Source: Escherichia coli (GTDB lineage: Bacteria; Pseudomonadota; Gammaproteobacteria; Enterobacterales; Enterobacteriaceae). Taken from it: DNA of 64,000 nt. Within the stretch, counting starts at the first letter, position 1. Each line of letters opens with the position of its first letter. The position numbers are program-made. Shown here piece after piece: positions 15,001 through 21,000 of the stretch. The stretch lies in NCBI RefSeq assembly GCF_965641715.1, contig NZ_OZ282453.1. One strand, 5' to 3'.

Positions 15001-18000
15001 GCATTACCGATGTGAAATTTGTCTTCGCCGAAGGGATCGCATACGGTCCGGAAATGGCAGCGAAAGCGCAGTCTGACGCGAAAGCAGCCATCGACAGTAT
15101 TGTTGCTGCATAACCGGACACGATCTTGATGTGGACTGTAGTTCAGTCCACATCTCAACCCACTTACCTGTTTTCCCATAATTTCAGCATCGCTTTGTGA
15201 TCTTCCTTAAGCACAATATGCGAGCGTCTGGCTCGAATAAAGCTACTCGCTTCATCAACTGTTTTACAGTGTCCGTAACATAACAGCCATTCCGCCACTA
15301 CCAGCGCACTGCGCGATAATCCCAATGCGCAATGGACCAGAACGCTGCCTTGCTCTTCGCGTAATGTTTCCAGCATCGCCACGGCCTGTCGGAGCTCCCC
15401 CTCTTCCGGAACCACCAGATCCAGCATCGGTACACAGAAATAGAGTCGATCTTTTGTCGCTCGTCCGCGAGGGAATTCAAAGGTGACATCCAGAACCGCA
15501 TTCTGTGCCGGAATATGTCGTGGAAACGCCCCTAAATAAACACCAGCAGTCATTTTGCTCACCGGCTCCAGGCGACGACAAAACCAACGCATAGATAGCC
15601 ACATCCCGATGCGCCAGGGCAATGTCAGCCAGTAAACGGCGGGCGGGAGTTTCCCCTGACTATCTTTCCCTGTTGTTATCGCGCCAAGCCCACCGTACCC
15701 ACGGCCAATAATGAGTAGCGATAATACTGGCCAACATAACCAGACTGACCACCATAACTGAACCATCATCATTAGCTCCATCAACACAATGCACGCGCAC
15801 GCGCCTACGACATATGGCAGTGCTATTTTGATTCGACGTTGATCAGGTTTCTGATAATTCCAACGACGGTCGACGGGTACCATCCAGTCAATCAACATAC
15901 CTACCGCCAGCCCTGTGATGACATCAATAAAATGATGCTGCCAGGTTGTCAGCGTCGAAATGGCGATGAGTAAAAACCATCCGCCGCAGACTTTACGCCA
16001 ACTCACAGCCAGATGCTGACGAAAGTGACGCCAAAGTAGCCAGCAGAGAATAATATGCAGCGAAGGAGACTGGTTATAGGGCAGATCAAACAGTTCAAGT
16101 TGCGAAAATAGCCATCCTGTCACCCCACTCACTTCAGGACGGATAAAACTAAACTTCAGCGGGTAGAGAAAAAAACCGCAGCAGGCCATTACCGTTGCCA
16201 GAATAAGCCGGTGGACAAGTCGGCGTTGTTCGAATGTCGAGCTACAAACGAACAGCGAAAATCCATATAAAAGATCCAGACTCCAGTAAGGAACAATAGT
16301 CCAGGGAAGAAAAGGGATCGCCGTTTCCCAACCGAATACCTGACTGGGGATATCATGGCTGTTAAGGTCCTGAACCGCGGTGAACTGATTAAGAGATCCA
16401 TAGGTGAAGAAGAAAAACGGGGCCAGCAACAATAACCAGCCAGCGCCTTGTAGCAATACGTTCCGACGTTCAGTTATCACGACGCACCGCCATCGAAACC
16501 GTAAAAATGCCCCACTCATCAATCCGTTGTGTGCATTTATCAAATCCGGCATCACGCACGAGTGAATTCATCTCCCCTTGCGAACGCACGCGCATTACCC
16601 ACGGTTTACCATCTTTATGACTGGTTAACACCCCGGCAATCAGCTCCAGTTGTGGGTGCCACGGCTGCCCGGTGTAGAGGAGAATGCCGCCCGGTTCGAT
16701 GGCATTGGCAAGACCTGCGAGTGAGTTTTTTACCTGCTCATTTCCGGGAAAAAGCTCATACAGTCCAGAGACAATCGCCAGCGTAGGCCGCGGAGTTAAC
16801 GCGCTGAGTTCCTCCGGGTTAAACGCATCGCCCTGTTCAAAACGCACCCGCCCAGACATTCCCCGTTGAGCAATCATCTCTTGCCCCTGTGCAACATTTA
16901 ACTCGCTGTAATCACGTAACAAAATATCGCTTACGGCAGGCTCGTTTGCCAGCGCATCCAGTACATAGCGCCCATGCCCTGCGGCAATGTCAACCACGCG
17001 GACGGCTAAACCTTTGGCGTGGAGATCGGCAACGGCTTGTTTAATCAGTATTTGTAAATGGGTTTTGCGCTGGCGAATACCGCGCCAGCCAACACTGTTC
17101 AGGTAGATTTTGTCGATTAAGCGCCCGAATGCGTTACTACCTTGCGGTTGATTTTGATAGACATAATCCAGCGAACTGCCTGAATCAAAGCCGGTGCTCA
17201 TTCCGAGATGCAGGCCCGCAGAGTGCGCCCCGAACAATTTCATCGCTTTACGCATAAAGCGATACGCCAAATCAACCGGCGATAATGGCACGGGTCCACC
17301 TGAAAGGAGCCGCCAGCGATCCGCTGATGGTCCTGTGCAGTCTTCATGCTGATAATCAAATTTTTGTGACTTGTTAGCATATAAACGACTAATAAAGCTT
17401 TGCATTTTTTCAAATGCCTGCGCCCTGTTCTCTTCACCCAACGTGTCGTGATAAAAGCCTGGCAGCAGATGCAGCTCTTTCAGAGGGCTACGTAATCTCT
17501 GATAAAAATCAATCTGCGGTTGACGATGCACCACATAGTCATCGCCTGATATCAGAAGTTGCGTGGGGAGCGTAATCGCCGCCGCATCGCTAACAATACG
17601 TTCAGACGTTTTATAGAGATCGAGCAAGATATTAACGGCAATCGCCCTTGTGATCAGCGGATCATTATTGAAACTCGCCACCCGTTGCCGATCGTGGGTC
17701 AAATAGCGTCCTTTCACATAGGAATTAATAAAAAACAGACCACGCAGACGATGCCATAACGCCAGCGCAGGACGTGCCAGCGGCACATACAATTTAACCT
17801 TAAAGGCCGGAGAAGCCAGCACCAGCCCGCGAATTGCAGGCGCATAATCATGAACCCATGTGGCAACCAGCACTGCGCCGACGCTCTGCGCGATCACTAC
17901 CACCTCTTCCAGCCCGACCTGGCTGTCGCTGGCAGCAAAACGGACAAACTCATCGACATCCCGCACTGAACGCGCAAGAGATGGGCTATAACCACGCGGC

Positions 18001-21000
18001 CCCGAAGTTTTTCCATGCCCTCGGGCATCCCATGCATAAAAAGCAGTATCTGGCATCGCCAGTTCATCAACGAGATGTTGTAGACGACCAGAATGTTCAT
18101 GACCGCGATGAAATAAGACGATGACCTTTTTCGCCCCGGGCTGTAAAGCGGGCCAGTGCCGATAAAACAACGCTGTATTATCACTGGTGGTAAAAAAATG
18201 TTCCCCAGGGATGCGTGAATTTTCCATTTTCTCTATTTTCCTTCAGTAACAGCAGTAGCGAATAAAATAAAAAAATACCGGAGCGGTGAAAATTAATGAG
18301 TCAATCCTGTCAAGGAGTCCGCCATGTCCTGGTAATAGTTTTCCGCTATCTTTAACACCAATATCTCGTTTGATGGCTGACATCACTACATCGCCGCAAA
18401 AACCACTAATACCAATTAACAAACCCGCTAATAATGCCTGTAATGTATTTAGCGGTGTCAGCAACGGCCCAATAATCAGTGACGCAATCATGGTGGTGAT
18501 TACGCCCCCCACCAGACCTTCCAGCGTTTTTCCCGGGCTGACTTTGGGGACCACTTTTCTTCTGCCGCAGGATTTCCCCCATAAATACTGTGCAATATCG
18601 TTTGACTCTGTTAACGCCAAAAGAAATAACACCAGTAACGCCCCGCCCTGGGTATTTGTGGTTGGCAACATTAATAACCAGGCGGCATGACTCAAGGCGA
18701 AAACGGTCATTATCCAGCCCCAAAAAATGGCGCTCACGGTATGCAGAAAACCGGAGGTATCACCTACTAAAACTCGCCAGGTGGTTAATATCAGAACCCC
18801 AGCCAAAGGTATAAATAACAGAAACAGCTCAAAGCAATTAAAACCGATAAGCAAATAGTTAAGAGGAATAACCCAATATAACCAACGCGGAAAATGTACG
18901 GATATAAGCGTACAATATTCTTTCAATGCCAGAAAACTTATCAGCGCAAAAAACGTCAACGTCATCCAGCGTGGACCTGAAATCACCAGTGAAAAACAAA
19001 TGACGATGCCCCACCAGGTACGAATACGTAATGTAACTTCATCCCCTTTTCTCTCCGGTAACCGCCATACCCGAAAACGGTTTATCAGCGTTGCTAAAAT
19101 TAACAACGCGAAAAGTGTTGCCAGAGATTTTTCCAGCATTATCTTTCAGCACTCATCAGGAGCACACTCCGACAACGATTAATCGCAGTCCAGATAAGCA
19201 GAATTGAAGCAATGCCCCATAAAAGATTATTCCATTGCATCCACTGTGGATAAATGGCAACGGCCAGCCCCCACAACCCAAATATTAACGCTCGATCGCT
19301 TTTGCCAAAAGGACCGACATAACTACGAATACCGTTAATCGTCTGCGCGAGTAAACCGCAAAACTCAGTCAATATGGTGCAAAATAACATGAGTATTACG
19401 AGTGATGCGTTACTTTCCGGTAAAAATAAAAACGGTAAATAGAGCGCAATATCGGAAATAACATCGCCAGTTTCATTTAAAATCGCCCCCAGACGTGTTT
19501 GCTGATTGCACTCACGCGCCAACATGCCATCCAGCGCATTGAGTGCCATACGGATAAAAAGCACGATGGGCAATAGCAAAAAGAGGATGGGTTGTGCGAC
19601 CAACATCAACAGCAATCCGGTAATAAGAGAAAGCGCCAGTGCAGCAAGAGTGATGTGATTCGCTGTAACATGGTGCTTATAAAGCCAAAACATCGTCGGC
19701 CTTAACAGCGACTGAAAGAGCGGTTTTATCTGGTAGAGCGTCATTATCAATCCTTGATAATTCGGTTTGCGCTATGGTGCATCAATTCCCCTGACGGAGA
19801 TATCGCAACACGACGCTTCATTAAAAATTCAGAATATATCAAGGTATTGGGGACTCACTGTCAGGAATGATTATCCCCAATAAATCAAGTGGTTAAAAAT
19901 TATTACGCTGTTATTCAATACAACTCATCAAGTTTTCTCATCGCTTGTTCCCGTATTGCGCGCGTCTTACCGTTAAGCGCCAGCTGGCGAACTAAATCCA
20001 GTTCAGGGTTAACAAGCTCTAACGCCAGCAAAGGATCACGTTTCAGCCTCGCCTTTAATACATCAACTGGAAAACGGGGATTATTCATCGCCACAATCCA
20101 CCACTCGGGATCAATTTCTGCCGCCAGTACTGCAGGCGGTGTGTGGCGGTTGTTAAGTGCGCCGAACTTGAAAAATGTGAGATTGCTTTTCGCCAGTGTA
20201 CTCCACCATATACGATCCGGTTGTTTTGCCAGTACATCCAGTTGTGCTAACGCATCGGGGTCTAGTGCATAATAAACACGTAACGCTTCGTTAACCTGCG
20301 CACGGGAACTGTTTTCCTGCCTCAGAAAAAACTTCGCCCAAATATCATTGCGTGGCGTGTTTTGCTGTAATTCCTTGAGAACAACAGCGGGTAAATTATC
20401 CCAACTAATTAATGCTCTCTCTAAAAAGTCCCAGTCGTCCGAACGTATCAGAGAGGTGGCATTTAATAGCATCTGGTCATCAACTTCACCGTAGCTGATA
20501 AGCTCAGACAAAATCATATCAGCGCTGGTTTCATATGCATCTGAATCTGCTTTGGGATTATTTTTCCGATGCGATAAAGCACGTTGCCAAATTTTTTGTT
20601 TCATCGACGTGCTCAGATACTGATTTTTCGCCAGATTACTCCACCCCTCAGGATCGTTGAAACGTGTCAATAACCGTTGTAAAGCAGCGTCAGAGTGAAT
20701 TATTTGCATATCCCGACAGCAAAAGTAGGCAGGGGATTTTTTCTCCATCCTTTTAACAAAATTAAACTGTAAGTTATCTGGCAACGCTAAAAATAACGCA
20801 CCTATTAGATCATCGTCATTCTCGAATTTTTGGTATAAATATACTGCTATTTTGTCACTCTCTTGTGGCGTCATCCGCAACAATTGACCATGGTGTTTCA
20901 TCTCTGCCAGCTTTAACGCTAAGCTTGTGACAACATCGTTTGATGAATCGTTCGCCAACTGCATTGCCTGATTGTAGGTGAGTTGTCCTCCAGCACCGAC

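Follow-up and report, generated by a model that had tools for sequence, protein, structure and literature searches.

What does the ynbABCD operon of Escherichia coli make? Phospholipid synthesis in E. coli K-12 is regarded as essentially complete; ynbABCD encodes a further set of putative lipid enzymes, namely a CDP-alcohol phosphatidyltransferase (YnbA), a CdsA paralogue (YnbB), a hydrolase-methyltransferase fusion (YnbC) and a membrane protein with a dual-specificity phosphatase (DSP) domain (YnbD). The copy considered here lies at 15164-19744 in a stretch of 64,000 nucleotides (the window) from contig NZ_OZ282453.1 of RefSeq assembly GCF_965641715.1. This is E. coli chromosome, 99.4% identical to NZ_AP042570 over 15000-20000, where the ynbABCD names match; the window runs in reverse relative to the gene direction. 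A preliminary description made from the sequence had placed four minus-strand genes here and assigned a domain type to each protein. An open reading frame (ORF) listing finds all four genes intact, and Pfam agrees with all four assignments. The locus is thus real, intact and already catalogued, and the feature itself is not new.

The reading we prefer, to which we give an even chance, is that ynbABCD is a co-inherited, reduced cluster which provides a private CDP-diacylglycerol-dependent route to a minor anionic phospholipid, and that this lipid is then used at the outer face of the inner membrane. New here are the wider context of the cluster, the evidence from gene fusions, an Asn/Asn signature in YnbA, a domain of YnbD that resembles SMS and Aur1 and is predicted to face outward, and a revised ynbD start.

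The YnbC fusion was searched against 1.84 billion representative proteins, giving 407 relatives at E <= 1e-30; many are full length, with 33-57% identity. An alignment-based scan anchored on YnbC, with one genome per species, confirmed 510 loci, and 80 were kept for comparison. These come from Enterobacterales (Citrobacter, Hafnia, Proteus, Providencia, Morganella, Xenorhabdus), Pseudomonas, Burkholderiales/Rhodocyclales (Variovorax, Cupriavidus, Zoogloea, Accumulibacter) and Neisseriales, with one Bradyrhizobium and one Acetobacteraceae; Burkholderiales and Rhodocyclales are represented many times. Neighbouring families were defined by all-against-all ORF clustering; counts are lower bounds, as several contigs end within the cluster. 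Just six same-strand families are conserved across the 80 loci: the YnbC anchor (81), YnbA (79 loci), YnbD (71 loci), YnbB (63 loci), an acyltransferase of about 209 aa (PF01553, of the AGPAT/Aas-like lysophospholipid type; 60 loci) and a membrane protein of about 150 aa with three hydrophobic helices, here called protein X (at least 32 loci).

Gene order differs between lineages, and three arrangements hold A, C and D together. It is A-B-C-D in E. coli; A-B-AT-C-D (AT, acyltransferase) in Citrobacter, Hafnia and Rouxiella; A-C-D-X-AT-B in Pseudomonas and Betaproteobacteria; and A-C-D in Proteus, Providencia, Morganella and Xenorhabdus, where no YnbB is found within 10 kb. Homologues of YnbA, YnbC and YnbD are nearly always adjacent throughout the 80 genomes, which span Gamma-, Beta- and Alphaproteobacteria. 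In two distant proteins, P0123 (807 aa) and P0151 (927 aa), YnbA and YnbC are fused. The E. coli operon is therefore a reduced form of a wider module with A + C + D as its invariant core; two genes that relatives keep, for an acyltransferase and a small membrane protein, are gone from E. coli. The preliminary description had proposed a self-contained pathway built on a CMP-activated lipid. Synteny in about 80 species and the YnbA-YnbC fusions strengthen this idea and uphold one functional unit; in E. coli itself the cluster is incomplete.

Protein X is absent in E. coli. In Pseudomonas and Betaproteobacteria it lies between ynbD and the acyltransferase gene (13136-13591, 13082-13537 and 13184-13639 in loci L050, L040 and L042, respectively). 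Of its hydrophobic helices two are N-terminal and one is C-terminal; it carries an (E/Q)KYWALRVAFDAELF motif and matches no Pfam or NCBIfam family. Metagenomic contexts of three distant YnbC representatives consisted of short contigs, and one alone (L004, the locus of P0151) was informative. In this locus (9768-11866) genes for a patatin-like lipase and a short-chain dehydrogenase come after the YnbA-YnbC fusion, and the opposite strand carries a CdsA-like gene and a 592-aa PAP2_3 protein lacking the DSP domain; the same core has thus been elaborated in another way. The identity of YnbC to the E. coli protein is 61-63% in Neisseriaceae, Chitiniphilus and Herbaspirillum and 57-59% in Proteus, Providencia and Morganella; being out of step with taxonomy, these values suggest lateral transfer of the cluster.

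The four genes of the window are under purifying selection and are not chance ORFs. Compared with the K-12 copy (DNA identity 97.1%), the ratio of nonsynonymous to synonymous substitution rates (dN/dS) is 0.10 for ynbA, 0.21 for ynbB, 0.18 for ynbC and 0.27 for ynbD, and there are no internal stops; in addition, the catalytic residues of all six domains are conserved in at least 95% of 64-82 orthologues.

YnbA (19139-19744, minus strand) has 201 aa, with an ATG start and an AAGGA Shine-Dalgarno sequence; the mechanical ORF opens two codons earlier, at TTG. Its description as a CDP-alcohol phosphatidyltransferase stands at the level of the family, by homology to PF01066 (CDP-OH_P_transf; 37.8 bits against a cutoff of 22, E = 3e-9, 145 of 152 model positions). 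The enzyme is non-canonical, however. The signature of the family, D1xxD2GxxAR...GxxxD3xxxD4, has four aspartates that hold two metal ions. The corresponding sequence of YnbA is N69-A-x-D72-G-M-L-A-R-E...G86-A-x-L-N90-E91-x-x-D94-x-x-x-D98; N69 at D1 and N90 at D3 are invariant in 79 orthologues, and D72 (D2), G73, A76, R77, G86 and D94 (D4) are retained. Directly after D94 every orthologue has Val, Ile or Met, and never Arg or Lys. A block further on, R140-x-Y-x-G-P-x-G-K148-S-D-R151, is invariant.

A profile of 31 YnbA orthologues matches Mycobacterium tuberculosis PgsA1 (6h53) over its full length at 5e-12; the structures of phosphatidylinositol phosphate (PIP) synthase and AF2299 are also matched over the full length. 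In PgsA1, D68, D71, D89 and D93 hold Mg-1 and Mg-2, with D3 bridging both; R94, directly after D4, is 'always positively charged' and critical for inositol-phosphate binding, and R94Q nearly abolishes activity (PMC6506517). Against curated models, YnbA scores 76.1 bits for archaetidylinositol phosphate (AIP) synthase (NF040950, cutoff 180, 3e-21), 48.2 bits for PIP synthase (NF045883, cutoff 170, 1e-12) and 30 bits for PgsA (cutoff 109). The Pseudomonas orthologue is likewise below the AIP and PIP synthase cutoffs. The nearest relatives of YnbA (AIP synthase, PIP synthase and PgsA1) use phosphorylated acceptors. Strict conservation of the variant motif, together with the invariant R140...R151 block, speaks for an enzyme that works through a rebuilt metal/acceptor site rather than a dead one, and the basic residues suggest that its acceptor is anionic.

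YnbD was described as a membrane dual-specificity phosphatase. The phosphatase part stands: the C-terminal 125 residues match DSPc at 1e-24, and the domain (15164-15565, minus strand; about residues 306-438 of the 438-aa form plus the stop codon) has the HCxxGxxR(S/T) P-loop, the general-acid Asp and the DSP fold of a Cys-based enzyme, with PTPMT1 among its top structural matches. The membrane part (15581-16480, minus strand; residues 1-300, eight predicted transmembrane helices) is not a mere anchor. It is modelled as a second catalytic domain of the PAP2 class, with a PAP2/lipid-phosphotransferase core whose fold is nearest to SMSr and Aur1. In 72 orthologues it carries the motifs (K/R)FSFxRP, P-S-L-H134 and Q-H174-H175-x-x-D178, the last two conserved in at least 95%; they are the counterparts of the C1-like, C2 and C3 PAP2 motifs and supply the catalytic His and Asp residues in a helical-bundle fold. 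Profile evidence is weaker. PAP2_3 is matched in E. coli at 1e-3 (19.1 bits against a cutoff of 27), while the Pseudomonas orthologue reaches 25.5 bits (1e-5) for PAP2_3 and 24.4 bits for PAP2; against human PLPP1 the membrane domain profile gives 2e-3 over the C3 motif alone. The fold matches, each with its two listed values, are SMSr (8ijr; 14.6, 192), the Aur1 inositol phosphorylceramide (IPC) synthase (9ivc; 12.7, 202), LpxE (11.4, 143) and PgpB (11.1, 148).

Crude hydropathy calls under-predicted the helices of YnbD, and AlphaFold2 (AF2) helices with Arg/Lys counts were used instead. Over the eight long helices, all Arg/Lys clusters fall in loops assigned to the cytoplasm; loops assigned to the periplasm have none besides the catalytic C1-like K/R. 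The model predicts an N-in/C-in protein with periplasmic PAP2 motifs and a cytoplasmic DSP domain. YnbD has previously been named the fourth PAP2 enzyme of E. coli; its overexpression rescues neither a deficiency in undecaprenyl pyrophosphate (C55-PP) phosphatase nor one in pgpA pgpB pgpC, and cells without all four membrane PAP2 enzymes (YbjG, PgpB, LpxT and YnbD) are viable (PMC7413402). A literature search for the domain combination found only the Lipocone paper, in which YnbD is not discussed.

YnbC (16470-18227, minus strand) has 585 aa in two domains. The N-terminal domain (17403-18227, residues 1-275) is an alpha/beta hydrolase of the monoacylglycerol-lipase/lysophospholipase type. It matches Hydrolase_4 over residues 32-266 (231.6 bits, 1e-68) and the M. 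tuberculosis and human monoglyceride lipases at 1e-15 to 1e-12. Its triad of S115, D230 and H260 is at least 95% conserved, and its nucleophile elbow is A-Q-S-V-G in place of the usual G-x-S-x-G. The C-terminal domain (16470-17402, residues 276-585 plus the stop codon) is a class I S-adenosylmethionine (SAM)-dependent methyltransferase, matching Methyltransf_20 (PF12147) over residues 275-582 (500.6 bits, 2e-150), with the SAM motif D413-x-A-A-G-x-G419 and the acidic D439 conserved. Its AF2 model has a pLDDT of 93.6, and Foldseek returns SAM-dependent methyltransferases with a probability of 1.00. The best match is 3ocj, whose function is unknown, followed by generic small-molecule O-, C- and N-methyltransferases. 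The profile of the domain found nothing below E = 0.06 among PDB sequences, and a literature search for PF12147/Methyltransf_20 found nothing. A transposon insertion in ynbC has been reported to cause polyphosphate accumulation in one strain background; the Keio deletion shows none.

YnbB (18243-19139, minus strand; 298 aa) matches PF01148 CTP_transf_1 with 238 bits (2e-70). It scores 109.6 bits against the CdsA equivalog NF008635, far under the cutoff of 385 and with the C-terminal half alone aligning; it is therefore a CdsA paralogue. It also matches TmCdsA (4q2g) at 1e-22 with the SxxKRxxxxKDxxxxxPGHGGxxDRxD block intact, and S254-x-x-K257-R-D...K263-D...G271-H-G-G...D277-R-x-D280 is at least 95% conserved. 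An E. coli product of 889 aa (P0002) contains CTP_transf_1, Hydrolase_4 and Methyltransf_20 and looks like a YnbB-YnbC read-through fusion of one strain.

The proposed route can be set out step by step. In relatives, a PlsC/Aas-type acyltransferase, whose gene has been lost in E. coli, would supply phosphatidate or re-acylate a lyso-form. YnbB would make a local pool of CDP-diacylglycerol. YnbA, apparently translationally coupled to YnbB, would move the phosphatidyl group onto an anionic and probably phosphorylated acceptor, using an altered metal site with Asn at D1 and D3 and an invariant Glu adjacent. The cytoplasmic DSP domain of YnbD would strip the extra phosphate, as PTPMT1 does on phosphatidylglycerophosphate (PGP) or the Bacteroides enzyme on PIP. 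Soluble YnbC may methylate the head group or the lipid, and its lysophospholipase-like domain may trim an acyl chain. Once the lipid has been flipped, the SMS/Aur1-like domain of YnbD, which faces the periplasm in the model, would hand the phospho-head group to an envelope acceptor and free diacylglycerol; alternatively, this PAP2 domain may just hydrolyse the lipid. The order in the preliminary description, transfer followed by modification and dephosphorylation, is likewise an inference.

This route is supported by gene linkage, the fusions, intact enzymes, the relatives of YnbA, the predicted topology of YnbD, the precedent in Bacteroides and the coupling of ynbA to ynbB. Its steps draw on family membership, conservation, fusion, synteny and predicted topology; the CDP-diacylglycerol-related activity of YnbB is the part with experimental support.

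Several points weigh against it. YnbA has neither two of the four signature aspartates nor the Arg/Lys after D4, and may for this reason have a different chemistry or be a poor enzyme. The margin by which the fold of the YnbD PAP2 domain favours a transferase over a phosphatase is modest, and the topology of YnbD is a prediction. The YnbC methyltransferase has no characterised relative in the PDB profile or fold searches, and its methyl substrate is thus not narrowed. A gene for making the acceptor, such as an inositol-phosphate synthase, is not conserved near the cluster in the 80 loci. Some species hold A-C-D with no YnbB nearby, and a dedicated CDP-diacylglycerol pool is therefore not obligatory. 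The operon is missing from at least 801 of 5426 complete E. coli genomes (about 15%), so its role is dispensable. Lastly, the literature has no detected product of the operon and no lipid phenotype for deletion mutants.

A more specific form of the proposal is possible, though we would put it at only one chance in four: the product may belong to a phospholipid class so far undescribed in proteobacteria. The Asn-Asp-Asn/Glu-Asp site of YnbA would possibly take a phosphate nucleophile in place of a hydroxyl, which would yield a pyrophosphate-linked diacylglycerol lipid; YnbC would methylate its head group, and the periplasm-facing SMS/Aur1-like domain of YnbD would donate it to an envelope acceptor. 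If true, YnbD would be the first bacterial two-faced enzyme in which a cytoplasmic DSP lipid phosphatase is fused to a periplasmic head-group transferase.

Among the rival explanations, the one that survives best, while still unlikely, is lipid turnover or remodelling. The hydrolase and the two phosphatase-type domains would break down or edit phospholipids or lysophospholipids already present, and the acyltransferase, YnbB and YnbA would salvage the diacylglycerol or phosphatidate backbone for the CDP-diacylglycerol pool, for example under cold or envelope stress. Three of the six domains are of hydrolase type (monoglyceride lipase/lysophospholipase-like, PAP2 and DSP), the acyltransferase of the relatives is most like the re-acylating Aas/AGPAT enzymes, and L004 adds its patatin lipase; Rcs-linked regulation through BglJ-RcsB and the cold induction of ynbB point the same way. 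However, this leaves two strictly conserved elements unexplained: the SAM methyltransferase fused to the hydrolase, and a specialised CDP-alcohol transferase with an invariant motif of its own. Dgk, CdsA and Aas already perform salvage in E. coli, and the PAP2 fold of YnbD is nearer to transferases than to phosphatases.

A dedicated pathway for MPIase, a GlcNAc-PP-diacylglycerol glycolipid, is slightly less probable again, though attractive as chemistry. YnbB would make CDP-diacylglycerol, YnbA would join it to N-acetylglucosamine-1-phosphate, the phosphate acting as nucleophile, to give the pyrophosphate-linked compound I, and the PAP2 domain of YnbD would recycle diacylglycerol pyrophosphate. 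The preliminary description noted that only YnbB had been linked to a product, MPIase, and this agrees with the literature found, which assigns none to YnbA, YnbC or YnbD. Overexpression of YnbB raises MPIase about 3-fold, a ynbB deletion phenotype emerges when CdsA competes with Tam41p, and cold is reported to induce both ynbB and MPIase. Being short of two acidic residues, the metal site of YnbA might also suit an anionic phosphate nucleophile, and PAP2 enzymes commonly take pyrophosphate lipids, PgpB being a published case; PgpB and BacA recycle undecaprenyl pyrophosphate.

Against this, MPIase levels are unchanged by ynbB deletion. Although MPIase is reportedly essential, the operon has no match in at least 801 of the 5426 genomes and falls short of 80% coverage in 1143. 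A system serving MPIase should be required for it and distributed with it; the cluster is instead common outside Enterobacterales, being widespread in Pseudomonas, Variovorax, Cupriavidus and Zoogloea. The MPIase glycan has the same sugar unit as enterobacterial common antigen (ECA), and this antigen is a feature of Enterobacterales. No glycosyltransferase is conserved in or beside the cluster in the 80 loci, the synthesis of compound I is already assigned to CdsA and YnbB themselves in the published model, and the known structure of MPIase leaves the hydrolase-methyltransferase without a role. Given the roughly 15% of complete E. coli genomes without the operon, the link between YnbB and MPIase is probably a side activity.

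A back-up pathway for phosphatidylglycerol or inositol lipids, with YnbA of the PgsA or PIP synthase type and YnbD as PGP/PIP phosphatase, is very improbable and is largely refuted by complementation data. YnbA does give a full-length alignment to PIP synthases and a weak one to PgsA, and PTPMT1, one of the top structural matches, is the mitochondrial PGP phosphatase and belongs to the DSP family. However, overexpressed YnbD rescues neither of the phosphatase deficiencies noted above, cdsA deletion is not complemented by YnbB, and no inositol-phosphate synthase lies nearby. YnbA as a PIP or PGP synthase was rejected on the same negative complementation and missing synthase, together with scores far below the PIP synthase, AIP synthase and PgsA cutoffs (48, 76 and 30 bits against 170, 180 and 109) and a Val at the position after D4, where PIP synthases always carry Arg/Lys.

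Equally improbable is a set of unrelated neighbours or a decaying remnant without current function in E. coli: no phenotype is known, about 15% of complete genomes lack the operon and others have partial deletions, two cluster genes kept by relatives have been lost, and the ynbC transposon phenotype depends on background and is absent in the Keio deletion, but synteny across three proteobacterial classes, fusion proteins, dN/dS values of 0.10-0.27 with no stops, catalytic motifs that are all intact in the window copy and a regulated promoter speak against decay.

The gene order in the window is hrpA (10405-14307, minus), azoR (14508-15113, plus), ynbD, ynbC, ynbB, ynbA and ydbD (19915-22227, minus). 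The genes were described as tightly packed or overlapping, and the junctions agree with this. The ynbA TAA and the ynbB ATG share 1 nt (ATAATG); ynbB and ynbC are separated by 15 nt with an AGGAA Shine-Dalgarno sequence; and the ynbC stop (TGA, 16472-16470) lies 13 nt upstream of the ynbD TTG at 16456 or overlaps the alternative GTG start by 11 nt. The genes have the layout of an operon, lying on the same strand with short or overlapping junctions and no excess of internal promoters or terminators: a consensus scan found 4 promoter-like sites (8.8 expected from shuffled sequence) and 7 terminator-like sites (7.2 expected). Published work treats ynbC as an upstream operon gene and ynbAB as a target of BglJ-RcsB.

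The start of ynbD had been given as TTG. This codon is annotated, but it is only one of two annotated starts: the gene spans 15164-16456 (minus strand; 430 aa, TTG) or 15164-16480 (438 aa, GTG). RefSeq models give the 438-aa form in a K-12 derivative and strain XJ5.2 and the 430-aa form in the best-matching genome. Orthologues have N-termini 8-12 residues longer, with an Arg/Lys cluster ahead of the first transmembrane helix. In Citrobacter sp. R56 and Hafnia an ATG lies within this extended N-terminus, and neither has a start codon aligned with the E. coli TTG; exactly opposite the E. coli GTG, Citrobacter FP75 and C. youngae have GTG and Superficieibacter has ATG. From these alignments GTG 16480 is the more likely start. 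The longest ORF opens at 16555; this start was rejected, as the orthologues do not reach that far.

A hairpin lies at 15128-15154 (minus strand), 10 nt past the ynbD stop and between the convergent ynbD and azoR. It has a perfect 11-bp stem (GAUGUGGACUG/CAGUCCACAUC), and an 81-nt stretch of the region has a minimum free energy of -25.3 kcal/mol (z = -2.8 against shuffles). Neither strand has a U-tract after it and the terminator scan made no call there; it is therefore not a canonical intrinsic terminator, and may rather serve as a pause site in both directions or as a stability element. No RNA element came out of an Rfam scan of 14300-20400, the sole match having E = 0.46.

The region between ydbD and ynbA (19745-19914, minus strand) contains the ynbA promoter. 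A BglJ-RcsB site has been reported centred 65-68 bp upstream of the mapped ynbA transcription start, and mutation of the site abolishes activation. A sigma-70 consensus scan of 19745-19914 did not recover the published promoter, and the BglJ-RcsB site was not located in the window. ynbA is 3-fold up in an acid-tolerance transcriptome; ynbB was a conditional hit in an ECA-PG-only strain and is not needed for ECA-PG synthesis. There is a step in G+C content inside the operon (15000-22250), with ynbC and ynbD at about 0.47-0.54 and ynbB, ynbA and ydbD at 0.38-0.46. Such a step would fit a mosaic or horizontally acquired origin, as well as H-NS-type silencing of the part nearest the promoter.

Within E. 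coli the presence of the operon varies, and the operon is dispensable. It is found at 80% coverage or more in 4283 of the 5426 complete genomes; apart from those with no match, the others have only part of it. Strain F2_81 has lost ydbD and ynbA-D through a clean deletion that joins a 72-bp ynbD remnant to pdxI; in strain XJ5.2 an internal deletion has reduced ynbA and ynbC to fragments. ydbD, directly upstream of ynbA, encodes 770 aa annotated as 'DUF2773 domain-containing bactofilin'. It has an internal stop in XJ5.2 and, with its loss in F2_81, may share the variable-island behaviour of the operon. Five of the 4639 operon matches in the E. coli collection are on plasmids, and a few genomes have two copies. 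The dS values against K-12 are high for a within-species comparison (0.05-0.15, highest for ynbA), and DNA identity of the operon across E. coli ranges from 95.9% to 99.3%. Such values suggest several old allelic lineages or recombination at the locus.

If the preferred pathway is real, a conditional minor lipid or envelope head-group donor would be expected in E. coli, Citrobacter, Proteus, Pseudomonas and many Burkholderiales. YnbA would define a new CDP-alcohol phosphotransferase subfamily with an altered metal site, Methyltransf_20 would gain a function and the fourth PAP2 enzyme of E. coli a substrate; it would also become clear whether the link from YnbB to MPIase is a side activity. The full cluster, with acyltransferase and small membrane protein, is a better experimental basis than K-12 alone.

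Four known systems can be compared with ynb. In the CdsA/YnbB MPIase system of the Nishiyama laboratory YnbB is the same protein, and is the only member of the operon experimentally linked to a product. In contrast, the effect of YnbB there is auxiliary, and the distribution of the cluster is unlike that of an essential enterobacterial glycolipid. SMS, SMSr and Aur1 form the group to which the membrane domain of YnbD comes closest in fold; they differ in that identity is 11-13% and PAP2_3 stays under its gathering threshold in E. coli, and in that YnbD retains the C1-like (K/R)FSFxRP motif, adds two transmembrane helices and is fused to a DSP domain.

The phosphatidylglycerol branch (PlsC-CdsA-PgsA-PgpABC/PTPMT1) has the same logic of acylation, CMP activation, phosphatidyl transfer to a phosphorylated alcohol and dephosphorylation, and PTPMT1 demonstrates that a DSP-fold enzyme can serve as a lipid-phosphate phosphatase. 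However, YnbB cannot replace CdsA, YnbD cannot replace PgpA, PgpB or PgpC, and YnbA is far from PgsA. This housekeeping pathway has no methyltransferase, lipase domain or SMS-like domain, and the ynb hydrolase-methyltransferase is without counterpart in characterised phospholipid pathways.

Nearest among experimentally validated analogues, with a like three-enzyme logic in one cluster, is the inositol-lipid cluster BT_1522-BT_1526 of Bacteroides thetaiotaomicron, in which the PIP synthase BT_1523 is followed by the phosphatase BT_1525 and the AUR1-like BT_1522 (Heaver et al. 2022; PMC9246714). In that cluster a CDP-alcohol phosphatidyltransferase acts on a phosphorylated acceptor, and the nearest relatives of YnbA are of that type. 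A dedicated phosphatase and an AUR1-like transfer within the PAP2 superfamily follow, and the YnbD membrane domain matches Aur1/SMSr. The differences are also clear. No inositol-phosphate synthase is found in or near ynb, and YnbA is below the PIP synthase cutoff and lacks the key Arg/Lys. The ynb hosts are not known to have ceramide among their lipids. The ynb phosphatase is of DSP type and fused to the transferase-like domain, whereas the Bacteroides enzyme is of PgpA type. Finally, ynb adds a CdsA paralogue of its own, a hydrolase-methyltransferase and, in relatives of E. coli, an acyltransferase.

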